This document shows positions 2,633 to 23,524 of a DNA stretch of 32,000 bases, piece by piece. This DNA is from Promethearchaeota archaeon (GTDB taxonomy: Archaea; Asgardarchaeota; Odinarchaeia; Odinarchaeales; JBHLKK01). Both the position numbers and the translations under genes were made by a program. Numbering within the stretch: position 1 is the stretch's first letter; each line of letters begins with the position of its first letter. Location: assembly GCA_048939465.1 (NCBI GenBank), contig JBHLPL010000008.1:1-32000 (forward strand), written 5' to 3'. The notes beneath the pieces are model-generated. The model was not told the origin of the DNA, ran no database searches, and saw only the letters and a program-made list of their open reading frames with translations.

Positions 2633-2852
2633 CTTCTTCTCCGCAAGAAGACTCCACCCGAAAGCGTGAAGATGAATTGCGAGGAGTTTAAATAGTTGTT
2701 TTCACGAGAAGCATATTGAATTGAGTCGAGGTAAAACTCGCCAATTCTCAAATAGGGTGTCAGGGCAGGAACTGCCCGCAGAGCCTGTGAGACATGTCCC
2801 GGTGGGGAATGGATGAAACAGGAAGCTCCATCCGAAGGGTGGGGTAGTTCAC
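2633..2852 (+). mobile_element. Non-autonomous IS200/IS605-derived element, short class (copy A1): left end + TATA + omegaRNA-like scaffold + right end
   Basis: Left end CTTCTTCTCCGCAAGAAGAC-hairpin-GATGAATTGCG; TTTAAATA at 2687-2694; hairpins GAATTG/CAATTC and GGGCAG-GAA-CTGCCC; right end GGATGAAACAGGAAGCTCCATCCGAAGGGTGGGGTAGTTCAC, typical of tnpB-family right ends. Aligns with 8599-8824 and 23304-23524. Confidence 0.8.
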
Positions 2853-2888
2853 AAACCGGTTGTTCTTACTAGTCTTGGTGATTCTGCA

Positions 2889-4856
2889 ATGATCCCGATA
2901 CAGAGGGTAGTTTTATACAAACACGGAGTCGGATACTTCGAAAGGCGGGGAAAGGTCAGAGAAACAGCAGCGTTGAAATTAAGGTTCAAGAAAGCTGAGA
3001 TGAGTGATGTTTTGAAAAGCCTTTCTGTGATGGATTTGGGCGGTGGAAGGGTTTCTACCGTATCCTATGAGGCCGCTCCCACCATTTCGAAACTGCTTGA
3101 GAATATCGCAGTCAATGTACCTGAAACGAGTTCCTTAACCGAGCTGATAAAGCAAATCACTGGTATTGAGGTTGAGATTTCTTTCAACGGAGAGAAAACT
3201 CAAGGAAGAGTTCTGGGAATCGAGACCACCGTGGAAGTGGAGGATAAGGTTAAACGAAATATCGACCACATCGTCCTTTTGAAAGATGATTCAATAATTA
3301 CTGTGAAGCTTTCAGACATCAAGAATCTAGCTATTATGGATGAGGATGTTAAAAGAGATCTAGCGTATTTTGCGGACATCATTTCAGACTCAAAGAAAGA
3401 GGAGCTTAAGTCCGTTACCATTCTTTTTGAAGGAGAAGGAGAAAGAGATGCTGTGATATCTTACATGATTGAGGTCCCGGTCTGGAAAACAAGCTATCGA
3501 TTGATAATCTTTGAAGATCGGACAGTCCTTCAAGGATGGGCTATCGTGGACAATATCTTGGATGAAGACTGGGATGGTGTGGGGCTTTCGCTGGTTGCAG
3601 GACTGCCGATTTCATTTCGTCACGATCTGTACACTCCCCGGTATGTTGTCCGTCCTGAGGTAGAAGTTGAAGAAAGACTTGGGGTGGCTCCAGTAGAACT
3701 TGAAGAAGGGGCTGAAGCTGCTGAGCGGGCCGAGATGAAGGCATATGCGCTGGCAGATAGACCAGCTCCCGTGGGGGGTCCCGGCCTAGCTAAGAAGGCC
3801 AGAGCTTTCCGCAGTGCCATGGAACCACGAATGGACCGTGCAATTGAGACTGTTGAAACCATCGCGGAGGCCAAGGAAGCTGGAGAATTCCTGGTGTATA
3901 ATGTAACTGTGCCTGTTACCGTAAAAAGGAATCAATCTGCTCTTGTTCCCATTCTGACTAGTGATGTGGATGGAAAGAAAGTTCTTGTGTATCAAGAGCA
4001 TGCAAGACGCGGCAATCCGATCATGTGTCTTGAACTGACCAACAATTCCGATCTGACTCTGGAAAGCGGACCGGTTACTGTCTACGATGGAGGTGTTTAT
4101 TCAGGTGAATGCATGCTACCTTTTATGGCGGAGGGTGAAAAGCGTCTCTTACCTTATGCTGTTGATCTGGAAACGACGGTGACTCGTGAGGATAGAATGA
4201 AGGACGAATCCGTCCACAAGGTCATTGTACGGGGACCGGTTGTTGAGAGTCTATATTATAGAGCCCGTGAAGCCAAATACAAAATCAGGAACAAGACCGA
4301 TGAAAACAAGGAGATAATCGTAGAGCACGAAAAAGAGCATGGATTTGAGCCTGTTGATATGGAGAAGCCGAGCGAAGAGACTGCAAGCTATTATCGATGG
4401 AGAATAGCAGTTGATTCGAAAGAGACAACGGAGTTCGTTGTAAAACTAAGAAGGCTGATCTCATCAAGTTTGTCCGTTGTCGGAATTACTTCTTCCGTAC
4501 TTGAATTCTATTTGAGAAACAAATTAATCTCAGAAGAGGAATCTGAATACCTCGGCAAAATAGTCAAACTCTCTGAAGAGAAAACTGGTATTGAAGCGGA
4601 AATAGCTAAGTTAGAAGGTATGCAGAAGAAGATCTTTGAAGATCAGCCGAGACTGAGGGATAACCTTAAGGCGTTGGGCAAAACCAGACAGGAGGACGAG
4701 CTTAGGACGAAATATGTCACAAAGCTATCTGAACAGGAGGACGCTTTAGAGAAGCTCAAAAAGCGAAGAGATTCTTTGTCTTCGAAATCTCACAAGTTGC
4801 AGTTGGAAATTGATGCGGCAATCAATGAGTTTGCGAAGTCTCGACAAGACCACTAG
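2889..4856 (+). CDS. DUF4139/DUF4140-type protein with a C-terminal coiled coil
   Basis: N-terminal VVLYKHGVGYFERRG, central WKTSYRL and LQGWAIVDN..DEDW..V.LSLVAGLP motifs characteristic of the family. Confidence 0.75.
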   Translation: MIPIQRVVLYKHGVGYFERRGKVRETAALKLRFKKAEMSDVLKSLSVMDLGGGRVSTVSYEAAPTISKLLENIAVNVPETSSLTELIKQITGIEVEISFNGEKTQGRVLGIETTVEVEDKVKRNIDHIVLLKDDSIITVKLSDIKNLAIMDEDVKRDLAYFADIISDSKKEELKSVTILFEGEGERDAVISYMIEVPVWKTSYRLIIFEDRTVLQGWAIVDNILDEDWDGVGLSLVAGLPISFRHDLYTPRYVVRPEVEVEERLGVAPVELEEGAEAAERAEMKAYALADRPAPVGGPGLAKKARAFRSAMEPRMDRAIETVETIAEAKEAGEFLVYNVTVPVTVKRNQSALVPILTSDVDGKKVLVYQEHARRGNPIMCLELTNNSDLTLESGPVTVYDGGVYSGECMLPFMAEGEKRLLPYAVDLETTVTREDRMKDESVHKVIVRGPVVESLYYRAREAKYKIRNKTDENKEIIVEHEKEHGFEPVDMEKPSEETASYYRWRIAVDSKETTEFVVKLRRLISSSLSVVGITSSVLEFYLRNKLISEEESEYLGKIVKLSEEKTGIEAEIAKLEGMQKKIFEDQPRLRDNLKALGKTRQEDELRTKYVTKLSEQEDALEKLKKRRDSLSSKSHKLQLEIDAAINEFAKSRQDH

Positions 4857-4993
4857 AAGGAAGCCTTTCCCTTCCTGTTTTGACCTCACTCAGATTCTTG
4901 TCTCCAAATTCTTTTAAGAATAATTCTTTCAGGAAGAATATTAAGGCCGGGAATTTATCTTGGCGTGAACAGCGTTAGTTTGGAGGTCTTGAC

Positions 4994-5908
4994 ATGAGAA
5001 TCTTGACAACGGTTATTGGAAGCTACCCTGTGTGCGGTAACGAAGGTCCAGACGCTATTAGGGCAGCTGTAGATGTTCAGCTTAGTGCCGGCATAGACTT
5101 GATAAGTGACGGACAAGTTAGACATGATATGATAAAATACTTCACAAGTCATATTCCCGGTTTCGAGATAAAGGGGAACGAATCGGTAATAGTTGGTAAA
5201 ATCCATCCGAGTGATGACAAGTCGATAGCCGTAGACGATCTTATGCGGGTCAAAAAATATGTTAAGGGCAGAGCAAAGGTGAAGGGCATAATTACTGGAC
5301 CCATGACTCTTATCTCTTCATGTAAGATCACCAAGGACTCACCTTATGATAACATTTTTGATAGAAGGCTTTATGAGGATGCAGCTGAAGCTCTAGCAGT
5401 GGAAGCGAAGCAACTGACAAAGGCAGGAGCTGATTCCATCCAGGTAGATGAGCCCTTCTATTCTGTGGGAGTCCCTATGGATCTTGCTAAAGAGTGCGTA
5501 GAACTTATTGTTAACAGCCTTCGTGTACCCGTTTCCCTTCACGCATGCGGTGACATAGGAAAGGTATTCGATCGTCTGCTCGACTTCGATGGAGTGGACG
5601 TGCTCAGCCACGAATTTGCTGCCTCCCCCCGTAATCTTGAGGCCGTTACTCGACAGAAGCTTGAAGAGCACGATAAGAAACTTGGAGTGGGCTGTGTAAA
5701 GACGAATACAGAGCAAATTGAGACGCAGAAAGAGGTCTTGACTTTACTCAAGAAGGCAGCTGAACTGGTTGGTTTTGAGAATATGTGGATTCATCCGGAC
5801 TGCGGCTTGAGACTACTGAATTGTGATGTTGCAGAATTGAAGCTTAAGACAATGATGAACGCCACCCGACAATTCATTGAGGAGTCAGACATAGAGTCCG
5901 AGATATAG
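4994..5908 (+). CDS. metE: Single-barrel (core) cobalamin-independent methionine synthase, MetE C-terminal domain family
   Basis: GSYP and DGQVR at the N-terminus, IQVDEP, Zn ligands HACG / E (HEFA) / PDCGL; 304 aa, lacking the N-terminal barrel. Confidence 0.85.
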   Translation: MRILTTVIGSYPVCGNEGPDAIRAAVDVQLSAGIDLISDGQVRHDMIKYFTSHIPGFEIKGNESVIVGKIHPSDDKSIAVDDLMRVKKYVKGRAKVKGIITGPMTLISSCKITKDSPYDNIFDRRLYEDAAEALAVEAKQLTKAGADSIQVDEPFYSVGVPMDLAKECVELIVNSLRVPVSLHACGDIGKVFDRLLDFDGVDVLSHEFAASPRNLEAVTRQKLEEHDKKLGVGCVKTNTEQIETQKEVLTLLKKAAELVGFENMWIHPDCGLRLLNCDVAELKLKTMMNATRQFIEESDIESEI

Positions 5909-5942
5909 TTGTGGCTCTTAGTCCGTTCAATTCTCGGAGAGC

Positions 5943-7121
5943 TCAATCGATTCTAGGAGGAGCTTCCTTTCTGATTTCAGAAATTAGAAGATTGGAATCT
6001 AGGTATATTGTAAACGAGTGATCTTCATGTTTCAGTACCACGGGTACGGGGAATTTCTCGGCCTTTTCTATTTTGGATTTATCAATTGAGAATTGTATTC
6101 TACTACTGCAGTGCGGGCAGACAACAACCTTCGATATTCTTCTCAGAGGCTCTGGCTCTTCTTCGGGTTCTATCTTGAATGCAGTTCGTTTCTTATCTAT
6201 CCAGCTATGTATTGTAACTCTGGCTTCTGCCAAAAAGGACTTGAGATTGCTAAGCATATTCAGAACTGTAGTCTTGACTCGCTGCTTCTTGATTCCAGTC
6301 TCAGACATGAAGAAAAGTGATAGATTGTAACCCGGTTCCGGCTTCTCTAGAACCGTGAAGACCCCCTTCTCGCCCAGCTTTCGTGTGAGTTTGTTCAATA
6401 TGTAAAGGTCAAATTCATCTTTTACAGGAAATGCTAGTGACAAAACTGCGGAGTTGATGGTTTTTTTGGCGACTCCGTCACTGACTTTGAACTCCTGATA
6501 TTTCGCATGTTCGCATATTTCGTCACTAAACACACACGGATAGTCTGGTCCGTGGGTTGGACAGTTGAATGGTTCTAGATTCAATATTATGTCTAGTACT
6601 TGATCTACTCCCATGAGCTTAGGAGGTTCCTTAACATCAATTCTGCAGAACTCAGCGCCTTCCCACATGCTACTGGCGAGTTCAATCTGGTGATTTGGGG
6701 CCAGAGCAGTCGTAATCTGATTCGAGGCAGGGATACATACAAAGTTACATAAGGCCACTTTTGAGAATTGTTTTCCCCTCTCAAACGCAGGGCAGTGTGT
6801 GATCTTGAGTGTGAGATTGCCTTCGCCGAACTTCTTTACATCAAACTCAAAGCCAAGAATTGGCAAACTGTTTTGATAGAATTCTTCTGTGACATCTATT
6901 CCTTTTCCGACTATTCGAAGAGTGTTCTTTATCTGAGACATTAACGCACCCATCGATTTTTCCCTCTGCTCAGAAAGCAGGGTTGTTGCATCGCCCCCAT
7001 ATTTCTTCACGATCTCAGCGATGGCCTCGGTTTGAATTAGGAAGAGTGCATCATGCAAAATCTTAAGCCTCGATTGGATATCCGTTTCGGATACTCCATC
7101 CACTATCGGTCTGTCATCCAT
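5943..7121 (-). CDS. Multidomain protein: V4R-like domain + ARPC4 (Arp2/3 p20)-like domain + C-terminal CxxC domain
   Basis: HCP..LCNFVC..GAEFC V4R-like Cys pattern; [16 protein letters not shown]..KDEFD and [13 protein letters not shown] resemble the ARPC4 motifs [16 protein letters not shown]..ADEIE and RKPVEGYDISFLI; C-terminal VVCPHC..H..H domain. ATG at 7121 preferred because of a GAGGT SD; the ORF is open to GTG 7169. Confidence 0.7.
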   Translation of the reverse strand: [392 protein letters not shown]

Positions 7122-7275
7122 TTCTATTACCTCTGTCGGTGGGTTTGAATCATGTTCAAGCAAATACACTCGATTCTCACTAATAAAGTCTTTCTAACGA
7201 ATATGAGGCATAAGATAGAAAACATTTATTACACAAAATAAAGAGAACTTTATTCAATGATAAGGAGGCAAAATT

Positions 7276-7785
7276 ATGGGAAATCTGAGAATTTTCAGGA
7301 AAGCTCTGACGATGACTACCAGATCAAAAAGGAGGTTCTTTTCTGCTATTGGCATTTACTGCGTTCTCTCGTGGTGGGTTGCGATTTCAATACATCTAGG
7401 AGAAACCGTTCTCGCTATTATGGGAATCCTTGGCGGACTTATCGTTGCAGTTCTGTACGGCTTTGTCTTAACTCAATTTAGAAAGACTCAGATCGCCACC
7501 CTAAAATGCATAGGGTGGGGGAATGACAATATTCGACTTTTGATGATCGGTGAACTCCTGCTAGTTTCTCTCCTAGGATTCATCATAACGCTGGAAATAG
7601 ACATTCACATTTTGGGATTAAGTTGGTATGTTGGTGTAGCACCTGGTATAATAACTCAGTTTGTTTTCTCAGGTCTTTCTCTGGCTCTTACGTTTGTGAT
7701 AGTGATTTTCGCTCAAATGCCAGGAATTATTATCGCTCACTGGAGGACTCTTCAGGTTAGACCCATGGTGGCACTAAAGGCATAG
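7276..7785 (+). CDS. FtsX/MacB-family ABC transporter permease (short)
   Basis: Four hydrophobic segments, the motif RKTQIATLKCIGW..IRLLMIGE and the terminal RPMVALK typical of FtsX-like permeases; directly upstream of an ABC ATPase. Confidence 0.8.
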   Translation: MGNLRIFRKALTMTTRSKRRFFSAIGIYCVLSWWVAISIHLGETVLAIMGILGGLIVAVLYGFVLTQFRKTQIATLKCIGWGNDNIRLLMIGELLLVSLLGFIITLEIDIHILGLSWYVGVAPGIITQFVFSGLSLALTFVIVIFAQMPGIIIAHWRTLQVRPMVALKA

Positions 7786-7802
7786 AATGAGGGGGTTAAA
7801 AA

Positions 7803-8507
7803 ATGTCAAAAGAAGAATCCATAATTCTCGCGCAAGGCGTCTCAAAAGAGTACAAACGTGGGAGAGAAGTAGTCCAGGCGCTAAGAGGCGTGAACCTCGA
7901 AATCAGAAGAGGAGAACTTGTATGTATTTTTGGTCCCAGCGGAAGCGGTAAGACGACTCTACTGAATGTGTTGAGCGGACTGGACCAGCCTTCTGTTGGA
8001 CGTATCATACTGGATGGTACAGACACAAGTGTGCTGGATGAAAGACTCTTCCCCAGAATCAGACGAGAAAAAGTTGGTTTTGTCTTTCAAGATTTCAATC
8101 TAGTACCTGATATGACAACCATAGAAAACGTTGAATCTCCTCTCTGGCCCACTGATACCAAATCGAAAGCAATCGAAAACAAAGCCTTGGCCCTGCTAAG
8201 AGAGGTAGATCTCCTTGAAAGAAAAGATCACAGACCGAAGCAGCTTTCTGGGGGCGAGCAGCAAAGAGCAGCTATCGCTCGTGCGTTGGTTAACGATCCT
8301 ACTGTGCTATTTGCTGACGAACCGACGGGAAATCTCGATACCAAGACTGGTCAGGAAATCATGAGACTCCTCAGAAGAATTAATAAGGAACAAGGAACGA
8401 CCGTCATAGTCGTAACCCACGATCAGAGTCTACTGGAATATTCGGATAGAGCTTTCAACATCGTCGATGGAAAGGTATCGGAAGTTAAGTCGCGTAGGGC
8501 ATCTTAG
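7803..8507 (+). CDS. ABC transporter ATP-binding protein, LolD/MacB family
   Basis: Walker [10 protein letters not shown]-loop GFVFQDFNL, signature [21 protein letters not shown]. Confidence 0.95.
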
Positions 8508-8540
8508 GAGCTCGGTCTCCATTGCTCTACCGCCCCGCTC

Positions 8541-8548
8541 TTTTTTTT
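8541..8548 (+). terminator. Oligo-T terminator
   Basis: T8 run 33 nt after the ABC ATPase stop. Confidence 0.5.
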
Positions 8549-8598
8549 GGTGTTCCTCTTATATCAAGAGTTTTAAGAGCGTAGAACTAAGCTTTTAT

Positions 8599-8824
8599 CT
8601 TCTTCTCCGCGAGAAGACTCCGTCCGAAAGGATGGAGACGAATTGCGAGGAATTTAAATACCTGTTCTGACGATAGACATGTAGAATTGAGTCGAGGTAA
8701 AACTCGCCAATTCTCAAACATAGAGTCTCAGGGCTAGGAAATGCCCGCAGAGAGCCTGCAAGACACATCCCTTTACGGAATGGATGAAGCAGGAAGCCCC
8801 ATCCGAAAGGGTGGAGTAGTTCAC
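8599..8824 (+). mobile_element. Non-autonomous IS200/IS605-derived element, short class (copy A2)
   Basis: Same left end, TTTAAATA (8653-8660), identical GAATTGAGTCGAGGTAAAACTCGCCAATTCTC hairpin, and right end GAAGCAGGAAGCCCCATCCGAAAGGGTGGAGTAGTTCAC as copy A1. Confidence 0.85.
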
Positions 8825-8861
8825 ATCTCTTCAACGAATTACTCTCTGAGAGTGAGTCCAA

Positions 8862-9488
8862 ATGAGTTCTGGCAAAAAATCCATGAAATCCATAATAAAG
8901 AAGATGGATCAGAACATTAACGAGGTCAATGTGAAGCAGATCGATGACATGGTAAATGAGATAATCTATACAAAAGCTAAGGATGGAAGAATCTTTGTAG
9001 CAGGAACGGGCCGATCCGGTCTCGTAGGAAAGGCGTTCGCCATGCGCCTGTATCACCTAGGTTTTGATGTGGTTGTTCTTGGCGAAACCATAGTACCTTC
9101 AGCATCGAAAAGAGATTGTGTGGTGGCGATATCTGGTTCCGGTAAGACGGATTTCACGGTAGACACGGCAGGATTGGCCAGAAAGATTGGGGCTCGCGTT
9201 ATTGGGGTTACCAGCGAGGAGGAATCCCCACTCGCAAAGATAAGCGATATTGTTGTTATTGTCAAAGGTAGAACTAAGGAAATGGTGGATGAATCGAAGG
9301 AGAAATTCAAGTGGGATGCTAGGCAAATAACGGGCCTTCATGCGCCTCTGAGCCCTCTCGGCTCGATGTTTGAACTTACGGTAATGCTATTCCTCGAAGG
9401 GATAATTGCAGCCCTGATTGAGAAGCTGAAGATATCGGAGGATACTATCCAAGAAAGACATGCAAACATTGAGACCATTACGTCTTGA
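8862..9488 (+). CDS. hxlB: 6-phospho-3-hexuloisomerase (SIS domain)
   Basis: GTGRSGLVGKAFAMRLYHLG, VVLGET, AISGSGKT and PLGSMFE..E motifs, ending in RHANIE. Confidence 0.9.
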   Translation: MSSGKKSMKSIIKKMDQNINEVNVKQIDDMVNEIIYTKAKDGRIFVAGTGRSGLVGKAFAMRLYHLGFDVVVLGETIVPSASKRDCVVAISGSGKTDFTVDTAGLARKIGARVIGVTSEEESPLAKISDIVVIVKGRTKEMVDESKEKFKWDARQITGLHAPLSPLGSMFELTVMLFLEGIIAALIEKLKISEDTIQERHANIETITS

Positions 9489-9531
9489 GTACCTCTTGGT
9501 CTGTATTTATCACGTGGTGTCGCGGCTGGTT

Positions 9532-10374
9532 CTATGTCGGAAGAAACTGGCTTACCCATGGCCAAAGCATTCCGATTGCCACAGAGAACAAAAAAACACC
9601 AAAGATGATTTTGAGTTTTTTGGACGAGATGCCCAAAGCTATACGTGGGCCCAAGTATGACCCAATGATGCTACCAATGACAACAACGATGCCTAACACA
9701 ACATCCAGACTACCAAAGACAGCATGTCCCATTGTTCCGCATATTCCTGTCATTATGATAGTAAACGTTGATGTTGCTACAGCTATGTGAATCGGCATCC
9801 CGCAAATGAAAACCATGACAGGAACAATTACGGCGCCTCCTCCGAGACCAAGCAACCCCCCCGCCAGCCCCGCGAAAAATCCTGCAATGAGACTCGGAAT
9901 TATCTGTATAATATACTCGCTCCTCCTTCCATTTGAGTCGATTATTGCTCGTTTCCAAGTGAATCTTTTGGGTGTGCACTCTGTCACCTCCTTTTCTCCA
10001 ACATTTGCCCGTATCATCATGGCCAAGCTGGTAGCCATAAGGACGGCCCCGAAGATTGCTTGGAGTCCTAATGATTCTAATTGAGTGGAGAGCAAGGCTC
10101 CTAAGAATGCTCCAACAGCAGCGGGGAGCCCTAATGCCAGTCCTACTCTATAATCTACCATATTCTTCCTTGCATAGGCGATCGTACCCGAGATCTTGGA
10201 AAAGATTATCATGAACATACTAACTGCCACTGCCGCGTGAATATCCACCCCAAATATCATGACAAGAATCGGGACTAGGAGAGATCCTCCTCCGATGCCT
10301 ATCATAGTAGATATACAACCTACTCCCACAGACATCAGCGAGACTGCCAACGCAATATACCACGGAAATATCAT
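9532..10374 (-). CDS. Sulfite exporter TauE/SafE family membrane protein
   Basis: Two repeated halves with GIGGGSLLVPIL and GLGGGAVIVPVM, and AVA.S motifs. Start placed at ATG 10374 because the in-frame extension to 10401 lies inside mobile element B1. Confidence 0.9.
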   Translation of the reverse strand: MIFPWYIALAVSLMSVGVGCISTMIGIGGGSLLVPILVMIFGVDIHAAVAVSMFMIIFSKISGTIAYARKNMVDYRVGLALGLPAAVGAFLGALLSTQLESLGLQAIFGAVLMATSLAMMIRANVGEKEVTECTPKRFTWKRAIIDSNGRRSEYIIQIIPSLIAGFFAGLAGGLLGLGGGAVIVPVMVFICGMPIHIAVATSTFTIIMTGICGTMGHAVFGSLDVVLGIVVVIGSIIGSYLGPRIALGISSKKLKIIFGVFLFSVAIGMLWPWVSQFLPT

Positions 10375-10379
10375 TCTAT

Positions 10380-10727
10380 CTTCTTCTCCACAGGGCTCCA
10401 TCCGAGAGGGTCAAGATGAATTGCGTTGTGTTTAAATGACTTTCTGGTAATTAAGTTTTGGGTTTGCTGCTCGCAAGAGGAGGGTTGCCCGTGGGCATGG
10501 ACATAAAACTCGGTCTGGGAGCGCAGGTCCTGCGGGCACGTCTTGCTCGACAGCGTGCTTGAGTGCTTGTGGTACAGTAGAGATCGAGCTCACCCGGAGG
10601 TGAAAGCCTTCCTGTGCGGTCATTGATCTAGAGCGTAAAGACCTGTCCTCTGAGGAGCCGAAGCGTCCTCGGGAGTATGAAGCCGAGAGGGAGAAAATTC
10701 CTTGTGAAAGCTAGGAGAAGTTCGCAC
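10380..10727 (+). mobile_element. Non-autonomous IS200/IS605-derived element, long class (copy B1)
   Basis: Left end CTTCTTCTCCA..CTCCATCCGAGAGGG..GATGAATTGCG and TTTAAATG (10431) match class A; the internal ~270 nt aligns with 14183-14539; degenerate right end GAAAGCTAGGAGAAGTTCGCAC. Confidence 0.7.
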
Positions 10728-10863
10728 AGTATTCTCCTAACACATTCTTCCTTCTCCTCTTGAATTTCTGGCAAAAACCTTCAATTGCTACTTAGGCTCT
10801 GTTCTTCACGATCGCTTTAGGCAGAAGAATCCACCAATATCGTTAAATCCTTTGGCATTTTAG

Positions 10864-11913: not shown

Positions 11914-11919
11914 AAAAAA
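11912..11919 (-). terminator. Oligo-T terminator of the thermosome-rpo6 unit
   Basis: A8 on the + strand (T8 on -) 8 nt past the rpo6 stop, at a convergent gene junction. Confidence 0.5.
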
Positions 11920-11926
11920 GAAGGAG

Positions 11927-14022: not shown

Positions 14023-14182
14023 CCTTACGCTCAAGAAGTCTTATGAACTATTAGAGATACTCTTATTCAAAGCAATAGGCTCCGATTTTAAAGGAATATT
14101 ACTGCGATCAGTAATCACAATCCTATTCCGATAGTTCCCAGAAGAATTCAAAGTGTCAGCCAACCCTATTCTGGTCAATTGT

Positions 14183-14539: not shown

Positions 14540-14562
14540 AGCTTTGACCTCCGGGCTTTAAG

Positions 14563-15381: not shown

Positions 15382-15440
15382 GAATGACGGGACCAAAAGA
15401 AAAGGTGTCAACCGCAGAAGCTTCAAAAATAAAGAGTATT

Positions 15441-16664
15441 TTAATACGCACTCGAAAGCAGTTGCACATTTCCTATGCGCACTTTCTTCAGTCCCGCTTT
15501 TTTGGCCACTTCCAAGCATTCATGAGCGTGGTTCCTACTCGTAACGGGCAAATCTGTCATGAAATAGTGAGGAAAGAAACCTAGTAGTGCATAGGGGATG
15601 TTCGGACTTATCTCAGCAATGAATCCTGCAATCTTTTGTACCTCCTCCTTGTCGATGTAACCAGGTATGAGCAGCGTGCTCGCTATCAAAGGGGGAGGGT
15701 CAGGTCTGGCTTCTATCATCTGTCCGAGCCGTTTGAAATTCTGAAGCGTATACTCGTTTGAAACTCCGCACAAAGCAATGTTCAGATTCTCATCAAAACA
15801 CTTCAGATCGAACTTCACACAACCCCCGCTCTCAAGAGAGAGTTCCATTGCTTTCATTGCCAGACTCCAATTCATAGAACCATTTGTCTCCCAGCAGACT
15901 CTAAATATCTGACCAAGTTCTTTTGCATTATTTGATGCTATCTCGGCGGTTTTCAGAGCATGAGGCATTTGAGGAGTCGGATCGCCTCCGAAAAAGCAGA
16001 TGCAGGAAACTTTGTCATTCACCTTGCCCGCTAAGTCCTCTGAACTCATAATCGGTTTTAATTGCCTAGTATTCTCCCTGAAATGCCAGTTTTGGCAAAA
16101 CATGCAGTCGAAGTTACACCCCCCCAAAAATACTGCCAAATTCGCATAACCGTATTCTGGTCCGTTGCGGTTAGCATATTTTGGATAGCCCGCCCCTGTT
16201 CCTGCTGGGCACACCCAGTCTGCCACACAGTTTGTCGGCAACGGGTCATAGTACCATGAGAGTACCCCTCGTTCCGGTATCCCTGCAAGCCTTACAAGCT
16301 TCTCACCGACGTTTGTGACCATACCACAGTATCCTTTTTCTCCGGGTAATATCTTGCATCTGTTTACACAGAATCCACAACTAATGCCCTCTTTGGGCGG
16401 CTGACTCGGCAAATCGTAAAGCCTCTTACTTTCTGCATGTTTCATTGAAGTATAGACCAGAGCCTCCTCGGGCTTATTCCTAAGACAACTAAGACACACA
16501 TCCACACCTCGTGATATGAGAATGCTTCTATTGCCACATATCTTGCACTCTGATTCTGCACAGCCCGGCTCTCTGAATATTCTGTACAAATTCGTTTCCT
16601 CAATATCTTCTGTATCAAGTGATAACCGGCAATGATCTAATAACAGTTTGCTCGATCCAATCAT
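15441..16664 (-). CDS. Radical SAM protein, PFL-activating-enzyme-like, with N-terminal Cys clusters
   Basis: CNFDCMFC (CX3CX2C), FFGGDPTPQ, ETNG, KFDLK, TLLIPG; additional CxxC motifs at the N-terminus. True start may lie downstream of 16664. Confidence 0.85.
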   Translation of the reverse strand: MIGSSKLLLDHCRLSLDTEDIEETNLYRIFREPGCAESECKICGNRSILISRGVDVCLSCLRNKPEEALVYTSMKHAESKRLYDLPSQPPKEGISCGFCVNRCKILPGEKGYCGMVTNVGEKLVRLAGIPERGVLSWYYDPLPTNCVADWVCPAGTGAGYPKYANRNGPEYGYANLAVFLGGCNFDCMFCQNWHFRENTRQLKPIMSSEDLAGKVNDKVSCICFFGGDPTPQMPHALKTAEIASNNAKELGQIFRVCWETNGSMNWSLAMKAMELSLESGGCVKFDLKCFDENLNIALCGVSNEYTLQNFKRLGQMIEARPDPPPLIASTLLIPGYIDKEEVQKIAGFIAEISPNIPYALLGFFPHYFMTDLPVTSRNHAHECLEVAKKAGLKKVRIGNVQLLSSAY

Positions 16665-16865
16665 AAACTGCAGTGCTGTAAAAACCTTTAGGTATTATCC
16701 ACGTCTTTATTCAAAAGATGGCAACGTCAAAAAATAAGACTTAAATCGGAACTTCATGAGGAGACAACCCCCAAAAAGGCTGATATTCATTAATGCAATT
16801 AGTTAAACTTAAAAGGGAGAGTCCATTTAACTAATAGCAAATCAAACAAAGATGAGGAATAAAGA

Positions 16866-17297
16866 ATGGCTGAGGGATTTGTCGGAGCTAAAATCGTTGG
16901 TGTAATTCTAGCAATCGTCGGAGTCCTACTGATCGTAGTTGGAGCAACCTCGTTACTTGCAATCTCAATTCCGGGCTTACCAGCTGAGATCATTACGGCA
17001 CTTGCAGCACTGAGTTCGAACGCCTACATAATGATTGTCTACGGCATCATCGCTATGGGTGTCTCGGTCGGTCTGTTCCAGGCCCAAGAATGGGCTGCTG
17101 GGGCGGCTGCCGTTTTGCTATTAATCGTAGTTGTTTCTTCGGGATTTACATTTTACACTCTCTGGGTTTCTATGGGTTTGGCTGGTATTTGGGGTGCCTT
17201 GACAGGTCTGAGCATACCCGTTTGGATTGATATCGGTGTACTTATAGTATCAATAATCTGCTTGGTCTATCTAGTTACCGCTAGTGGCTGGCGTTAG
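16866..17297 (+). CDS. Hypothetical membrane protein (about 4 TM helices)
   Basis: 143 aa, strongly hydrophobic, followed by a T8 tract. Confidence 0.7.
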   Translation: MAEGFVGAKIVGVILAIVGVLLIVVGATSLLAISIPGLPAEIITALAALSSNAYIMIVYGIIAMGVSVGLFQAQEWAAGAAAVLLLIVVVSSGFTFYTLWVSMGLAGIWGALTGLSIPVWIDIGVLIVSIICLVYLVTASGWR

Positions 17298-17319
17298 AAA
17301 ACCTCATAAATAACATCTC

Positions 17320-17327
17320 TTTTTTTT
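17320..17327 (+). terminator. Oligo-T terminator
   Basis: T8 run 22 nt after the stop at 17297. Confidence 0.5.
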
Positions 17328-17407
17328 AATTGTCTGTTTATGATTCCTGTTTCCCAATTCCTATTTGTACGTATCAAGAGGCTTGGAGGGTAGTCAATCC
17401 GGTTTGT

Positions 17408-18112
17408 TTAATGGGTTTTTGCTGCCATGATATAGGCATCTTCCCCATCCTGATAATATCTTTTGACGACGCTTGAGACTTCAAATCCCAGCTTCTTATA
17501 AAGACTGATAGCCGGAGCATTTGAAACTCTCACTTCCAATATATACTCGGAAGCTCCTCCTTCTTTCATTTCATTCATTGCCCTTTCCATTAATTCGAAG
17601 CCAACACCGTATCCCCTATAGGCATCTTCAACTGCTATTGACACAACGTGCCCCCTCTTGACCCAGGTGACATCAAAACTTGATCTCCCCTTCTCCAGCC
17701 GGCACATAATATAGCCGATTATTTTTCGATCACTAATGAGAAAATATCGTGAACCTTCCAGTTCCAAGAATCTAAACCCAGCGCTCAATGAAGACGAAAT
17801 CTCATAAAGTCTTGATAGCCTATCTTTCACCTGATCTTGGGCAATACCGGTGATTATTGCGTATTCTTCAGCTGTTAGGCCGTTTTTTCTTGTCGTGCGC
17901 AGAGCGTTCAGGATTCCTTCTAGTTCCTTTTCACTGGCTAACAGGAGTTCAGGATCCCTTTCTGCTACAACAAAAAGATTTGGATAGGTTCTGTGAAGGT
18001 TTTTGAAGAAAGAAGAGGGATAATTCTCCGGCAGGAAGGACATGTTGATCTCTACTACTTCATCAATATCTTCCTCTTTGAATTCTCTCAACCGCCAGAG
18101 CCTTTTTCCCAA
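17408..18112 (-). CDS. ard1: Ard1/RimI-family N-terminal acetyltransferase with a ~76-aa insertion
   Basis: LPENYP, GYIMCRLE, GHVVSIAV..YRG.GVG, LEVRVSN.PAI.LY.KLGF and YYQDGEDAYIM match archaeal Ard1/Naa10. Confidence 0.9.
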   Translation of the reverse strand: MGKRLWRLREFKEEDIDEVVEINMSFLPENYPSSFFKNLHRTYPNLFVVAERDPELLLASEKELEGILNALRTTRKNGLTAEEYAIITGIAQDQVKDRLSRLYEISSSLSAGFRFLELEGSRYFLISDRKIIGYIMCRLEKGRSSFDVTWVKRGHVVSIAVEDAYRGYGVGFELMERAMNEMKEGGASEYILEVRVSNAPAISLYKKLGFEVSSVVKRYYQDGEDAYIMAAKTH

Positions 18113-18225
18113 GCCGCCCTCACCTCTTCGGAATCACAAATTAGTAGTAATAACAACATATTTAAATTTTCCAAAGCCCAGTCTTTCCAAAAGACTTTTA
18201 TCATGATTGCTGTTCACTTCAACCT

Positions 18226-19404
18226 ATGGAGTATTTCCGTTATGGCACACCATCTTCCACCGGTTTGGCCTTTCGAGATTTACAAGAGATTGTCGAGTCT
18301 CTGTTTCAAGTATCGGCATCATATTTAGACCACACGCATTATGGCGTCCCCACATTCATCTTGGAGCAAGATCAAGAAACAGAAGAACCATTTGAAAAGC
18401 TTCGAGCAAAACTCGAAGAACACAATTTGATGCCGACCCTCAGGAACGAGAAGAGAACAATACCCACAATCACTTCAGCAATCGCATCAAAGTCTGAAAA
18501 CAGACAAAGCGTAACGCTTCTTAGAATAATGCCAAAGATGGAACGTCCTCAAAGGGATCGCAAGTGGAACCTCATCTTGTTTGGAGCCACTATTATAACT
18601 GTGGCCATTACAGGATATTTAATGGCTACAAGCCCCGACTTTCAATATGTATACGGGGTGTTGTACCCCCCGGTTGGACCATTGGAGGTAATTATTACAT
18701 TCACCTTGGCACTGATTGGGATTGTAGGGTTACATGAATTAGGTCATTTGATTTCTCTCAAGAGACATAAGATCAAATCATCTTTACCTTATTTCATTCC
18801 TGGTCTTCCCTTTTGGGGTCTTCCGACGTTTGGAGCCGTAATAGTCCAGCGAAGTCCTCCCACAAACCGTAAGGAGCTTTACGATATGGGGATAAGCGGT
18901 CCCTTACTTGGTTTTGCAGTCTCATTAATAGTAACAATAGTCGGTATAATGGTTTCTGCAGTGCTCACCCAAACGGATTACAATAACCTTATACAGAACT
19001 TCGAACTGGGGAGCATACCAGAACCCCTGATTTTTACACTTCTTACCGCCCTGCTATTTCCAGGAGGTCATTACATTTACCTTCACCCAATAGGACTTGC
19101 CGGCTGGCTTGGGATGCTCATAACAGCACTTAATCTATTCCCAATTGGCCAGCTTGATGGAGGACATGCAACCAGATCTTTGTTTGGCTCGAACTCTAAA
19201 TATGTTTCCATAGGCGGTGCAGTAATATTATCAGCACTAGGTTATTTTTTCATGGCAATACTTGTGTTGTTTATGGGCGGGATAGATCATCCGGGACCCC
19301 TAGATGACGTATCAAAACTGCCACTCGGTCGGAAGATACTCTCGGTTTCAATCGTAATAATTATTGTACTTTGCACTCCGCCGCTTATACTGAGTTTCTT
19401 CTGA
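18226..19404 (+). CDS. Site-2 protease (peptidase M50) family metalloprotease
   Basis: HELGH zinc motif, PYFIP, GPLLG and NLFPIGQLDGGH. Confidence 0.93.
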   Translation: MEYFRYGTPSSTGLAFRDLQEIVESLFQVSASYLDHTHYGVPTFILEQDQETEEPFEKLRAKLEEHNLMPTLRNEKRTIPTITSAIASKSENRQSVTLLRIMPKMERPQRDRKWNLILFGATIITVAITGYLMATSPDFQYVYGVLYPPVGPLEVIITFTLALIGIVGLHELGHLISLKRHKIKSSLPYFIPGLPFWGLPTFGAVIVQRSPPTNRKELYDMGISGPLLGFAVSLIVTIVGIMVSAVLTQTDYNNLIQNFELGSIPEPLIFTLLTALLFPGGHYIYLHPIGLAGWLGMLITALNLFPIGQLDGGHATRSLFGSNSKYVSIGGAVILSALGYFFMAILVLFMGGIDHPGPLDDVSKLPLGRKILSVSIVIIIVLCTPPLILSFF

Positions 19405-19415
19405 GGGGAACAGCT

Positions 19416-20105
19416 ATGGAAGAATGGCAGAAGCATCTTATAGAATATCTGGTAAAGAAAGAAGCGATACTTTTTGGGGATTTCAAACTGAAAAGTGGCA
19501 GATACTCTCCTTATTTCTTCAATCTCGCCAACGTCATGCGTGATGGAGAAGGAACAATGAAAGCTGCAGAAGCCTACGCAAACGCCATACATTCTTTCAT
19601 TGGACTGGACACCGTTGATTACATACACGGACCTGCCTACAAGGGAATTCCTCTTGCAGGAGCAACTGCGGTTGCTTTGTTCCAGAGGCATCACGTGTCT
19701 AAGAGGTGGGGGTATGATAGAAAAGAACCCAAAACCTATGGAGCCCACGAGTTATGGCTTGTAGGGGACATTCGAGATGGCGATAAGATACTGATAGTTG
19801 ATGATGTGGCAACTACCGGAAGAACAAAGATAGACGCAATGAATAGGATTATGGAGACCTCTGAACGTACAAACCTTCAGTTCACAGGGGTTTTGATCAT
19901 GCTGGATCGAAAGGAAATCAATGAACAAGGGCAATCAACTTCAAGCTATTTGAAGGAACGAGGGTTAAAACTCTACTCTATCCTTGATGCCCCCATGGTT
20001 TTCGATTATATGCATGGTCGTTTGGTTGAGGAAGCAGTCTATGTTGATGAGGAGAAGTACCGGAATTTCCAAGAGTATTTCAGGAAATTCGGTATAAAAG
20101 CCTAG
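19416..20105 (+). CDS. pyrE: Orotate phosphoribosyltransferase
   Basis: FGDFKLKSGRYSPYFFN, GPAYKGIP, DRKE.K, PRPP-binding LIVDDVATTG. ATG 19416 follows a GAGGGG SD; the ORF track opens at 19371. Confidence 0.93.
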   Translation: MEEWQKHLIEYLVKKEAILFGDFKLKSGRYSPYFFNLANVMRDGEGTMKAAEAYANAIHSFIGLDTVDYIHGPAYKGIPLAGATAVALFQRHHVSKRWGYDRKEPKTYGAHELWLVGDIRDGDKILIVDDVATTGRTKIDAMNRIMETSERTNLQFTGVLIMLDRKEINEQGQSTSSYLKERGLKLYSILDAPMVFDYMHGRLVEEAVYVDEEKYRNFQEYFRKFGIKA

Positions 20106-20108
20106 TTG

Positions 20109-20759
20109 CTAGGGGCTCTGCTCTGATCTCTCCTCGCTGTGGCCTTCCTCGATCTTCTGTTCTTCTTCAGTCCCTTCCTGTTCTTTTTCCTTCCTTGCGC
20201 TGAGAACTATGTCAACAATTAGAATTACTAAGACTATAATGATTACGAAGATAAGAAGTGCTTGTGCACCTCCGACTCCGAAAACCGCTCTCAACCATAG
20301 AATGAATAAACCGATGCGAGGAATACTAAACACCGTTTTACCGATGATGTTCGAATAAGGAATTGGCTCGGGATCTGGAAGCGGATTAGTATCGGGGTTG
20401 TCTCCCTTAGTTCGGAAGTACCAGTCGCCGTTTTGCTGGTACTTGTCAATAACTCTGTGTACAACAGGAATGCTTGGATCTATTCCCCACAAGCCAGGAG
20501 TCACGACGAAAAAGACAATGACTTCATCCACACTGATTTGGTCTGGCTGAACATGTCTAACGAAAAGTATATCTCCTTCCCAATATGTAGGATGCATACT
20601 GCCTGAAGTAACGACAACAATTGGGGTCGAGGTACCCATGGCTGCTTGAAGCCCAAAATGGAAGCCATAAACCCCTGCTACAATTACCACGACTATTATT
20701 GCATAAGTGGCAACTTCCTTCTTCCAGGACTCTTTTGAACCTTCTGTATTCTTGGCCAT
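20109..20759 (-). CDS. sec11: Signal peptidase I (S26B, Sec11 type)
   Basis: N-terminal TM helix, VVTSGSMHPT catalytic Ser, VVHRV His, TKGDN..PDP. Confidence 0.92.
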   Translation of the reverse strand: MAKNTEGSKESWKKEVATYAIIVVVIVAGVYGFHFGLQAAMGTSTPIVVVTSGSMHPTYWEGDILFVRHVQPDQISVDEVIVFFVVTPGLWGIDPSIPVVHRVIDKYQQNGDWYFRTKGDNPDTNPLPDPEPIPYSNIIGKTVFSIPRIGLFILWLRAVFGVGGAQALLIFVIIIVLVILIVDIVLSARKEKEQEGTEEEQKIEEGHSEERSEQSP

Positions 20760-20884
20760 TCAATATCCCGGGACCTGTCGATTTTCCACTTCATATGGAA
20801 TTTCTTTCTTTTAAATTGTCTCCCCAGTGCCACCCCTTTTGTCTTTCAATGGAACGTGGCAGCTCCCTTTAAGAAGTATTCTGT

Positions 20885-20931
20885 TTTCTTTTCTCCAAGG
20901 AGATCCTATCCGAAAGGGCGGAGTGGTTCAC
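20885..20931 (+). mobile_element. Solo (collapsed) end of the IS200/IS605-derived element (copy S1)
   Basis: Left-end leader TTTTCTCC-AAGGAGA joined to a single hairpin CCTATCCGAAAGGGCGG and the right-end tail AGTGGTTCAC. Confidence 0.7.
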
Positions 20932-20990
20932 CTTCAAATTAGTAATTCGCTGCTTTTCTGATGATTGATCTTCGTCGGGCCCGTGTGATG

Positions 20991-21443
20991 CTAATGACCA
21001 AATTCCTTCATCAGTATTTTGACGTAAGGTGGATAACAGCATCCTTCAAGTATTTGCTGGAACCCCTCATAGGTTTCGGCGTTCCCATTTTGAGTCGTTA
21101 GTCTTCCTGAGTATATGTTCATGAATTTACGAGAAATATTATCAAGAAGATGGCTGACAGCCTCTTTCGGTAATTTTGTGGAGCAGATCATGGCAAATGT
21201 GATGCCTTGTTTGCTTTTGTGATACACTCTTGCAATTTCGCTGGTTGAGCTCTCTCCTGATTCAAAAGGAGTTGGGATTTTCAGACTCTGTACAGAATTC
21301 TCTAATGTGTTCATGATAGTCAGACTCATCTGGCCCTCAGGCAATGCTGTGTATTTTACTAGACAGTTTCCTTCCTTGCTGAATACATATATCGCCTTAA
21401 TGATTTTTTCATCGGTTTCTTGAAGCCCAGCCATCTTAAACAT
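20991..21443 (-). CDS. Longin-like domain protein
   Basis: IIKAIYVFSKEGNCLVKY (first hairpin), YHKSKQGITFAMIC (later strands) and LLDNISRKFMNIY (helix) follow the longin/sigma-adaptin pattern. Confidence 0.6.
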   Translation of the reverse strand: MFKMAGLQETDEKIIKAIYVFSKEGNCLVKYTALPEGQMSLTIMNTLENSVQSLKIPTPFESGESSTSEIARVYHKSKQGITFAMICSTKLPKEAVSHLLDNISRKFMNIYSGRLTTQNGNAETYEGFQQILEGCCYPPYVKILMKEFGH

Positions 21444-21819
21444 TTCCTTGATTTTGTAGCCTAGCTACATAATTATACGTCACTATACTATAAAAGCATT
21501 TTGCTTGAATTCAATTATTCGCAAGCTCCTTGGTACCTTTGTTGAGATATTCGCAGATTGTGTGTAGAATTATTGTGATTCTCTTATTTAAACTCTGCTC
21601 ATTGCGAAGTTTCATGAAAGAGCGTTGCTAATACTCTGACTGCGTACTGAATAGGTTTCTGAGTCTGAAAATCCCCGATGCAAAAAGATTAATCGAGAAC
21701 GCCAATTCTTTCTACCTTGTTCAATTTTAGATCAGGAAGAGAAAGAGTGAGTGCTCCATATGACGTACAAGTATGAAGCTTAATCATCCTTTTTACCAAA
21801 AGGTTTATGAAAAAAGGTC

Positions 21820-21827
21820 TTTATATA
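21820..21827 (+). promoter_or_regulatory. Putative TATA box for 21860..22156
   Basis: TTTATATA after an A-rich BRE-like tract, 32 nt upstream of a GTG start preceded by AGGAG. Confidence 0.55.
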
Positions 21828-21859
21828 TTCTATAATGGAACCGGATAGATGTTAGGAGT

Positions 21860-22156
21860 GTGTTACGGGTGCCAATTCTGAAAGATTCTCAAAAAATCAA
21901 GCGATTTATCAAACTTGTTTTTGATATGGCTGGTCAGCAGAAAATTCCGATTTTGGATGAAAAAACACTGTCTGAAATTAGAATCAGTGGCAGTAACATC
22001 TGTTGGGAAGTAAGATTCAGGTATAACGGATCAGATGACGGACCTGTCAAAGCCTTTCTGATACTTGCGCAATACTTCCACAGTATAATCATAAAGAAGG
22101 GAGATGTTTTTTACATACCTCACGGCGCAGAGAGCTATAGATTAGAGTCGGAATAA
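21860..22156 (+). CDS. Small hypothetical protein
   Basis: 98-aa ORF with a TATA box and SD upstream; no recognised motif. Confidence 0.55.
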   Translation: MLRVPILKDSQKIKRFIKLVFDMAGQQKIPILDEKTLSEIRISGSNICWEVRFRYNGSDDGPVKAFLILAQYFHSIIIKKGDVFYIPHGAESYRLESE

Positions 22157-22183
22157 TCATCAATTACTTTTTCAAGCAATTTT

Positions 22184-22762
22184 CTACGCTCTACCACCAC
22201 TCATCAGAGTCTTCAGTTTTTTTAGTTCCTTCAACATTTCGGATTTCAATCCACCAACGCTCGTCTCTTCCTCTGCTACCGCTGCGACCATTAACTCCCC
22301 AGGACTCATGGTTGGTGGGGCTGCAACTGGTGGTGCCACCATGGCTGGTGTTGTTGGGACTGCTGAGGGCGGGGCTGAAGCAGAGGGTGGAGCAGATGGT
22401 GGAGCAGAAGGAGGTCCTGATGGTGGAGCCGACGGGGGAACTGCAGAGGGCTGTTCCAGAGAAGGAGGTGCAGCAGATGCAGCAGGACTCCCGTGCAACG
22501 ATGACCAAAGCTCCTGAGGAGACATCATTTCTCCTCTTTTTGCCAGTACTGTGGTCAACACTGCCGTTGAAGTTGTGGTTTCACTGGCAGGAAGTCTTCC
22601 GAGCTCAAGAGTCTCTAGATCTTTCCTTATCCGTTTTAGGCTTTCATTAATATCTTTCGAGGCCTGCGTAATCATTGTACTGTACTTGTCGATAGCCTCC
22701 ATGAAGTAGTCTCGAATGCGAGCTAGGACTTTCACACTTTTTGTGATTCTATCATCCAACAA
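22184..22762 (-). CDS. Hypothetical protein: N-terminal helix/coiled coil, proline-rich PPSA repeats, C-terminal amphipathic helix
   Basis: 192 aa; AVPPSAPPSGPPSAPPSAPPSASAPPSA; C-terminus GLKSEMLKELKKLKTLM. Confidence 0.75.
   Translation of the reverse strand: MLDDRITKSVKVLARIRDYFMEAIDKYSTMITQASKDINESLKRIRKDLETLELGRLPASETTTSTAVLTTVLAKRGEMMSPQELWSSLHGSPAASAAPPSLEQPSAVPPSAPPSGPPSAPPSAPPSASAPPSAVPTTPAMVAPPVAAPPTMSPGELMVAAVAEEETSVGGLKSEMLKELKKLKTLMSGGRA
22370..22450. repeat. Degenerate 12-bp tandem repeat encoding PPSA units
   Basis: GAGGGTGGAGCA / GATGGTGGAGCA / GAAGGAGGTCCT / GATGGTGGAGCC on the + strand. Confidence 0.7.
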
Positions 22763-22927
22763 TGATTCACTCCATTGTTTCCTAATATTTCTTAATCATT
22801 CTATCTTTTTAAATTAACCTATTCTCAAATCGTTCTTTAATTTAACTTACATATTCTTAAGTATAGTTATACAACTCGCAATTAATTCCTTCTATCAATA
22901 AACCACATCTCTTCATAAAGATTTTTG

Positions 22928-22975
22928 CTTTCTTCTCCGCAAGAAGACCCCGGCCGAAAGGATGGGGCGGTCCGC
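22928..22975 (+). mobile_element. Solo (collapsed) end of the IS200/IS605-derived element (copy S2)
   Basis: TTCTTCTCCGCAAGAAGAC is identical to the A1 left end, followed by one hairpin CCCGGCCGAAAGGATGGG and a degenerate tail GCGGTCCGC. Confidence 0.7.
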
Positions 22976-23040
22976 TTCAAAGAATTTCTGTACAATCATT
23001 CTTATTAGCTTTAAAAGTATTATGAGGCATCCAAAAGGCA

Positions 23041-23295
23041 TTGCTTGCTCTGGGAGGCTTACTCTTGGACTCAAATCTTATGCTAATTGGCTTTCTCATC
23101 ATGATTGTGGGTATAGCAATGGTCATGTTAGGCGCTTTCTCATCCTTTGAAAGGGGAAGAAACGCTGAGACTGGAGGAGCCATTCTGATCGGCCCTATTC
23201 CAATAATATTCGGTGTCGGCAGGAAGTTGTTTTTCATCGCTGTGTTAGGTGCCCTGGCCCTCGCAATATTGATGGCCGTGTTCTTCCTGATTTAA
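23041..23295 (+). CDS. DUF131 / TIGR00304-family membrane protein
   Basis: GGAILIGPIPIIFG signature flanked by TM helices. Confidence 0.85.
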   Translation: MLALGGLLLDSNLMLIGFLIMIVGIAMVMLGAFSSFERGRNAETGGAILIGPIPIIFGVGRKLFFIAVLGALALAILMAVFFLI

Positions 23296-23303
23296 GGGTT
23301 CAT

Positions 23304-23524
23304 CTATTGCCCGCAAGAAGACCCCATCCGAAAGGGTGGAGACGAATTGCGAGGAGCTCAAATACTTGTTTTTACGACAAGCTTGCGGAATTGAGCCGAG
23401 CTAGCACTCACCAGTTTGCAGAGACAGAGTTCTAGGGCAGGAACTGCCCGTAGACCCTCCCAGACATATCCCGCTGGGAGCGGATGAAATAGGAAGCTCC
23501 TCATGAAGGCCAAGAGTAGTTCAC
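23304..23524 (+). mobile_element. Non-autonomous IS200/IS605-derived element, short class (copy A3)
   Basis: CCGCAAGAAGACCCCATCCGAAAGGGTGGAGACGAATTGCG left end, degraded TATA (CTCAAATA), GGGCAGGAACTGCCC hairpin, GGATGAAATAGGAAGC and the end GAGTAGTTCAC. Confidence 0.8.

Follow-up and report, generated by a model that had tools for sequence, protein, structure and literature searches.

Gene-less IS200/IS605-type cassettes that keep an omegaRNA-like scaffold in an Asgard archaeal genome

In a 32,000-nucleotide stretch of DNA from a Promethearchaeota archaeon (Asgardarchaeota, Odinarchaeales; GenBank assembly GCA_048939465.1, contig JBHLPL010000008.1, positions 1 to 32,000), referred to here as the window, five short repeat cassettes combine a TATA box with structured hairpins. 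We consider it very likely that these cassettes are non-autonomous IS200/IS605 elements, of the type called palindrome-associated transposable elements (PATEs) or miniature inverted-repeat transposable elements (MITEs), which arose by internal deletion of elements bearing tnpB, are mobilised by the transposase TnpA, and carry an omegaRNA that serves their own retention. Elements of this kind are already known in bacteria; the present ones belong to an Asgard archaeon. The assembly (G000; 1.96 Mb, 152 contigs, 91% complete) includes the window as its contig C137, and the window was compared with the two other species of the genus (G001 and G002, the sister species).

Results

Seven related elements in the window

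Alignment divides the cassettes into two related repeat families, A of about 220 nucleotides (nt; copies A1, A2 and A3) and B of about 350 nt (B1 and B2). Together with two copies of a 47-nt mini element they make seven elements, all on the plus strand. The original prediction had given the positions of the five cassettes correctly, save that B2 aligns from 14187 and not from 14183, but its count was incomplete, since both mini elements had been overlooked. The elements are as follows; scores refer to the covariance model R1 described below.

A1, 2633-2852, plus strand: family A, 220 nt; transposon-adjacent motif (TAM) TCTAT at 2628-2632, directly 5' of the left end
A1, inner parts: 19-nt left arm; left-end hairpin 2652-2671; TATA box 2687-2694; stem 1 from 2718
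A1, 2757-2852, plus strand: core omegaRNA-type scaffold, R1 = 99.5 bits
A1, 2853-2872, plus strand: candidate guide in the right flank, assigned by position only
A2, 8599-8824, plus strand: family A, 226 nt; TAM TTTAT at 8594-8598; TATA box 8653-8660
A2, plus strand: stem 1 from 8684; core scaffold 8725-8824, R1 = 74.5 bits
A3, 23304-23524, plus strand: family A, 221 nt; TAM TTCAT at 23299-23303; TATA-like box CTCAAATA at 23357-23364
A3, plus strand: stem 1 from 23388; core scaffold 23429-23524, R1 = 81 bits
B1, 10380-10727, plus strand: family B, about 348 nt; TAM TCTAT at 10375-10379; TATA box 10431-10438
B1, right end: degenerate, GTTCGC (GAAGTTCGC)
B2, 14187-14539, plus strand: family B, 353 nt; TATA box 14240-14247; left-end start and TAM gone; right end GTAGTTCAC intact
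Mini element, 20885-20931, plus strand: 47 nt; left arm, one hairpin and tail TGGTTCAC
Mini element, 22929-22975, plus strand: 47 nt; tail degenerate, GGTCCGC

Families A and B are built on one plan. A left arm of 19 nt comes first, followed by a left hairpin with the consensus CTCCATCCGAAAGGGTGGAG, the TATA box TTTAAATA, the internal stems and a right hairpin, and the element closes with the tail TAGTTCAC; every right end other than that of B1 reads ...GTAGTTCAC. The left-end hairpin lies 19 nt from its tip and the right-end hairpin 8 nt. Mean column identity reaches 82% across A1, A2 and A3 and 81% for B1 and B2. The alignment thus bears out the shared left end, TATA box, hairpins and right end that had been described from the letters, including the degenerate end of B1, and the four TYYAT pentamers and four flanking sequences listed at the time were read correctly.

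In family A, stem 1 begins exactly 31 nt after the start of the TATA box in all three window copies (2687 to 2718 in A1, 8653 to 8684 in A2, and 23357 to 23388 in A3), as originally noted and with a diverged spacer between. Of 24 family-A copies drawn from three genomes, 20 preserve this spacing, though the spacer is the least conserved part of the element. The claim that the cassettes hold no open reading frame (ORF) also stands: no credible one was found, only mechanical minus-strand ORFs and, in family A, a remnant of about 20 codons from the C-terminus of tnpB. An Rfam scan of the whole window at E values up to 1 returned no relevant family, and a tRNA scan found none. The window contains no tnpB; its three ORFs of about 407 amino acids are a radical-SAM protein, an ATP-grasp protein and one unknown protein.

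Parent elements elsewhere in the genome

Several tnpB genes and one tnpA are encoded in the genome. On contig C2 an element made up of a left end, a TATA box, a tnpB of 383 amino acids and a right end starts after TTTAT and ends in ...CAGTTCAC. Its left end and TATA box are those of family A. Positions 5-61 and 128-220 of A1 match the two ends of the C2 element, the latter stretch at 91% identity to the right end, and family A still carries codons 361-383 of the C2-type TnpB. Family A is, on this comparison, a deletion derivative of the C2 tnpB element. This agrees with the predicted descent from IS200/IS605, in which the right part corresponds to the omegaRNA region, and the internal TATA box appears to be the tnpB promoter now fused to the scaffold.

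It had also been foreseen that a TnpB with matching ends would be encoded elsewhere in the genome, and the C2 protein is such a TnpB. Its alignment with ISDra2 TnpB spans the whole protein (E 1e-60), and the RuvC catalytic residues D191, E278 and D361 are conserved together with the zinc-finger cysteines. Its ratio of nonsynonymous to synonymous change (dN/dS) is 0.14-0.18 among the three species, and the C2 tnpB element occupies loci that are not homologous between them. In the tail that overlaps the scaffold (L001:1705-1770, the last 21 or so codons, compared with the orthologues L092 and L093) synonymous differences amount to 0.06-0.24, against 0.36-0.48 in the body of the gene, which we read as a clear sign of a sequence constrained both as code and as RNA.

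The sole element of the genome with both tnpA and tnpB lies on contig C105. Its TnpA gives a full-length Y1_Tnp match (E 6.5e-37), and its right end is of the same type as those of the cassettes. At this locus (L003, 8-54 and 82-1856) a complete mini-like unit stands directly upstream of the element and is followed by a second left-end hairpin after CTTAT; the left end of the autonomous element may thus have a mini element nested in it or fused to it.

The remaining families point to other parents. Family C keeps 30-40 codons of a tnpB type that is represented here by one gene split over two contig ends (C70, 1-1001, and C55, 5721-6043). For families B, D and E the similarity is to a fourth tnpB type, at its left end and over its final 180 nt or so; this type is intact in G001 and G002 only (L099, 417 amino acids, and L102) and has left only remnants in this assembly. 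Its 3' end is matched by positions 140-348 of family B, and it is because the parent is a tnpB type of the sister species that family B shows no coding remnant when compared with any tnpB of this genome.

Empty sites in the sister species

The syntenic regions of the sister species are 77-80% identical to the window and lack A1 and A2. At the A1 locus both G001 and G002 read ...GGGGCAGTTTTAT followed directly by the A1 right flank, so that the sequence at 2853-2872 is homologous to the DNA immediately after the TAM in their empty sites. For A2 the match to the same two genomes breaks off precisely at 8598; the empty site has the sequence ...CTTTTAT|AGAACTTT... From these exact empty sites it follows that insertion takes place exactly 3' of the pentamer and without target duplication, and that the right end is exactly ...GTTCAC. 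A3, too, is missing at its orthologous site, as alignment shows for G002 and a difference in length for G001, and A1, A2 and A3 were all inserted after the split from the sister species. Both window mini elements are lacking there as well: that at 22929-22975 is absent from G002, and at the place of the one at 20885-20931 the G002 synteny gap is 49 nt shorter.

The family B sites are less simple. That of B1 is rearranged, with about 170 nt of other DNA in its place in the sister species, while in G002 the right flank of B2 follows GTTTTTAT, and about 85 nt including that TAM are missing here on the left side.

G001 has a 47-nt mini element of its own (C49, L042) about 60 nt upstream of the empty A1 site, which suggests that the same intergenic region has been used recurrently and independently. 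Contigs of four metagenomes were also compared over window positions 4000-23999, and the joints seen there between 8713 and 23434 turned out to be other family-A copies and not deletions.

Genome-wide census and insertion motif

Searching the whole assembly by BLAST and iterated nhmmer gave about 60 elements with these ends, 47-365 nt long and without a transposase or any other protein gene. They fall into at least five length classes:

Family A, about 220 nt: 14 full copies plus partials
Family B, about 350 nt: 11-13 copies
Family C, about 296 nt: 7 copies, with ends CTAAACCACCTC...GTAGTTTAC
Families D and E, about 292-315 nt: smaller groups
Mini, 47 nt: 11-15 copies with only the left arm, one hairpin and the right tail

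Almost all of them (61 of 62) are intergenic. The proposal that TYYAT is the insertion motif, or TAM, is upheld both by the A1 and A2 empty sites and by its frequency, as 38 of 62 copies have it right next to their left end, where about 1.5 would be expected (TTTAT in 23 and TTCAT in 11). Mini copies, with the consensus CTTCTTCTCCGCAAGAAGACTCCATCCGAAAGGGTGGAGTAGTTCAC, each follow a TTTAT-like motif and occur also on contigs C5, C16, C23, C29, C68, C73, C77 and C88. Their single hairpin seems to double as both ends, and the existence of these single-hairpin copies means that the ends alone suffice for spread.

A DNA-level search with family B through the class found matches confined to the genus; those in G002 lie mostly at contig ends, and the element family seems to be a main cause of assembly fragmentation. 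Runs of elements in one orientation are present on other contigs too and would agree with the preference of IS200/IS605 for the lagging strand. No usable replication signal came from GC skew in the window, which is uninformative on strand polarity.

Constraint and covariation in the RNA scaffold

Constraint was measured as mean column identity over the 24 family-A copies of the three species, with the following values.

TATA-to-stem spacer: 0.64
Linker: 0.65
End hairpins (the TnpA hairpins): about 0.69, the right one covarying
TATA box: 0.81
Internal scaffold stems: 0.85-0.94
Tail: 0.95

Because all columns share one genealogy, this gradient is the mark of region-specific constraint. Within family A the right-end hairpin covaries to a degree reached by none of 500 shuffles, and in family B covariation is marginal, with a score reached by 3 of 500.

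Alignment A9 joined the A cassettes with the last 97 nt of archaeal tnpB genes of the same clade. These relatives run from genes of the same genus (labelled Hodarchaeota) through those of Sifarchaeum, Borrarchaeum and Promethearchaeota to those of Methanoperedens and Methanosuratincola. Compensatory double changes are found in 15 of the 25 predicted pairs, as in GGGCAG/CUGCCC against CCGCAG/CUGCGG and CCGUAG/CUACGG. In 1000 shuffles the observed covariation was never reached, controls with the pairing slid along the alignment score far lower, and CAGGAAGC and UAGUUCAC are invariant throughout. The lack of a tnpB with matching ends and of significant covariation had been named as findings that would refute the original prediction; the genome has such a tnpB, and the scaffold does covary.

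The covariance model R1, built from A9, scores the three window A copies at 74-100 bits and finds 18-21 sites in this genome and matches in 33 of 151 genomes sampled from the phylum. In Borrarchaeum-like genomes many scaffold copies directly adjoin a full-length tnpB, while in this genome about 17 of 18 scaffold loci are gene-less. A candidate pseudoknot may complete the fold, since the invariant GUUC of the tail (positions -6 to -3, counted from the right end) is complementary to GAAC, the loop of the first core hairpin. The loop reads GAAC, GGAC or GGGC; GGAC and GGGC stay able to pair with GUUC, as do all loop variants but one, and there are no double changes.

Other features of the window

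Two coiled-coil proteins, one directly downstream of B2 (14563-15381) and one at 30100-31446, had numerous Pfam matches that were weak and below threshold (Baculo_PEP_C, DUF1664 and others). The summed contig depth in one mangrove metagenome (X3) rises to 78x over window positions 13338-14004, against about 8-10x elsewhere. This peak lies inside a minus-strand ORF of 547 amino acids (12294-13937) and is probably due to a conserved gene segment common to other organisms.

Discussion

A model for movement and retention

The cassettes are best understood, in our view, as selfish elements that have shed their protein gene and kept what is needed for transposition and for the guide RNA. Each copy retains the two subterminal hairpins recognised by the Y1 transposase TnpA, the archaeal TATA promoter that normally drives tnpB, and the omegaRNA 3' scaffold ending exactly at the right end. 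The C105 TnpA would then move copies in trans as single strands, inserting them 3' of TT(T/C)AT without target duplication. For family A we infer a TATA-driven RNA of about 135 nt, whose last 97 nt would form the scaffold for the C2 TnpB and whose 3' extension would be flanking DNA. Loaded in trans with this RNA, the C2 TnpB would cut only the empty site (TAM plus flank) left by excision, and recombination with a sister copy would restore the element. In such a cycle the guide would serve the retention of the element itself and not a host function. An omegaRNA that serves the retention of its own element is an idea put forward before, for PATEs of bacteria (Meers et al. 2023, 10.1101/2023.03.14.532601). 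It seems probable that TnpB still receives omegaRNAs in trans from the A copies, which would in this way home to their own empty sites. B1 and B2 are most likely decaying fossils, because each has a damaged end.

Several results weigh against this model. No presence/absence polymorphism or empty-site joint was seen in the four metagenomes, where the cassettes are present wherever they are covered, and this assembly, at its 91% completeness, holds no intact cognate tnpB for family B. Taken alone, the family-A internal stems do not covary beyond shuffles, though they are conserved, and support for the structure therefore rests on the wider tnpB clade. Positions of about 69-111 in family A (stem 1 and spacer) show no significant similarity to the 5' or the 3' part of the C2 element. 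The pseudoknot is best treated as a lead, resting on conservation and on A-to-G changes that still pair. Some family-A copies, finally, are changed in the loop or tail and may be dead.

Alternative explanations

The cassettes could also be inert relics, that is, dead MITE or PATE remnants that are neither transcribed nor used and are simply tolerated in intergenic DNA. Such relics would account for the degenerate right end of B1 and the lost left-end start and TAM of B2, for the missing family-B tnpB and the lack of excision polymorphism in the four metagenomes, for a pairwise identity of only 72-77% among the cassettes, and for the weakened TATA box of A3. What neutral decay does not predict is that the scaffold should be far better conserved than the spacer, the linker and even the TnpA hairpins of the same copies. 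The TATA-to-stem spacing is likewise kept in most copies, the cognate TnpB and TnpA are intact, and A1, A2 and A3 were inserted after the split from the sister species. We therefore think it unlikely that the cassettes are mere relics.

A bolder idea accepts the mobility of the cassettes and makes the family-A copies a satellite lineage that parasitises both the TnpA and the TnpB of autonomous elements and that selection has reduced to a minimal unit of TATA box and omegaRNA, its roughly 18 guides letting one C2 TnpB patrol many loci. In its strongest form the RNAs of family B, for which no TnpB of their own is present, would be cross-used by a non-cognate TnpB, or the RNA would have a role beyond homing. 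We judge this quite improbable.

The original prediction had proposed a dispersed guide library used by an active or a nuclease-dead TnpB encoded elsewhere; on a reading of this kind the cassettes would be domesticated and kept by the host for regulation or defence. There are, it is true, about 18 scaffold loci for each cognate tnpB, the scaffold evolves under constraint, and all five window copies lie just upstream of a co-oriented gene. The guides, however, are insertion flanks only, for which the genome offers no second target flanked by a TAM and matches them elsewhere only partially and at chance level; and in the occupied site the flank is preceded by GTTCAC and not by the TAM, so that it is not a target. 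The catalytic triad of the C2 TnpB is kept, unlike that of domesticated proteins of the TldR type. Insertions are lineage-specific and absent from the sister species, and the orientation seen in the window does not extend to the whole genome, where cassette and downstream gene point the same way in 26 cases and opposite ways in 32, close to random. Copies of 47 nt without any scaffold have spread by the same route, while B1 and B2 are each damaged at one end and belong to a tnpB type that is not in the assembly. Taken together, these findings make a host-kept library a highly doubtful reading.

That the cassettes act as mobile promoters or leaders, the TATA box driving or modulating a downstream host gene with the structured RNA as its 5' leader, can draw on the window right ends lying 23-183 nt upstream of co-oriented ORFs (at 2889, 8862, 10864, 14563 and 23708), but is scarcely credible given that orientation shows no preference genome-wide, that the downstream genes are unrelated, and that in the sister species these genes occur with no cassette beside them.

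Comparison with known systems

Among known systems, the closest likeness to the non-autonomous elements proposed here is to bacterial PATEs, which have been described in Geobacillus stearothermophilus (Meers et al. 2023, 10.1101/2023.03.14.532601) and as an IStron derivative in C. difficile (10.1101/2023.11.20.567912). According to Meers et al., an omegaRNA that depends on use in trans is frequent among PATEs. Like them, the cassettes have no protein gene and share their ends with tnpA/tnpB elements in the genome they inhabit; a TnpA acting in trans is proposed to move both, and many copies keep an omegaRNA that would need TnpB in trans. The cassettes differ from the described PATEs in their Asgard-lineage archaeal host and in the archaeal TATA promoter fused about 31 nt ahead of the RNA. 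They also differ in deriving, as separate deletion classes, from at least three tnpB types, in including a minimal 47-nt form with a single hairpin, and in gene-less copies that outnumber the cognate tnpB by about 17 to 1.

The scaffold can be set beside that of ISDra2 from Deinococcus radiodurans, for which structures of TnpB with its omegaRNA are available (PDB 8BF8/8EXA/8H1J). The minimal ISDra2 scaffold has 116 nt, four stems and a pseudoknot between positions -5 to -3 and a 5' loop (Nakagawa et al. 2023, PMC10097598), the tetraloop of its last hairpin lies at -20 to -17, and the C-terminal tail of tnpB that overlaps the RNA is dispensable (PMC10097598). The likeness is one of layout: the predicted family-A RNA stops at the right end and overlaps the C-terminal tail of tnpB, its right-hairpin tetraloop lies at -20 to -17 and a helix strand (the 3' strand of stem 2) at -35 to -31, and a candidate 3' pseudoknot strand, here at -6 to -3, could pair with a hairpin loop. 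The two systems are unlike in their TAM, which is TT(T/C)AT here and TTGAT in ISDra2, and in size, the family-A core being shorter (about 90-97 nt) with a short stem 3. In our case the partner in the candidate pseudoknot is the loop of a 6-bp hairpin at about -84 to -81. Similarity in sequence between this RNA and the ISDra2 omegaRNA was not seen, nor was it searched for.

A guide RNA gene that stands apart from the protein gene is also a feature of TldR, a nuclease-dead TnpB with stand-alone guides (10.1101/2023.11.30.569447). Unlike TldR, the TnpB considered here has an intact catalytic triad and resides in a mobile element, its guides would be arbitrary insertion flanks, and the cassette copies are not conserved between species.

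Significance

Although no new kind of system is revealed, the cassettes offer a clean natural case, in an Asgard-lineage archaeon, of an IS200/IS605 element that sheds its protein gene and keeps a promoter-driven guide-RNA module, and exact empty sites, parent elements and region-specific constraint are documented for it together. For tool builders it provides a compact and naturally trimmed candidate system, with a TnpB of 383 amino acids, the TAM TT(T/C)AT and a scaffold, about 97 nt long, whose conservation spans several archaeal phyla. For the organism and its relatives, one element family accounts for some 60 intergenic repeats in this genome and for many contig breaks in the others. For the family itself, our results support selection on the omegaRNA at the level of the element even if TnpB comes from elsewhere.

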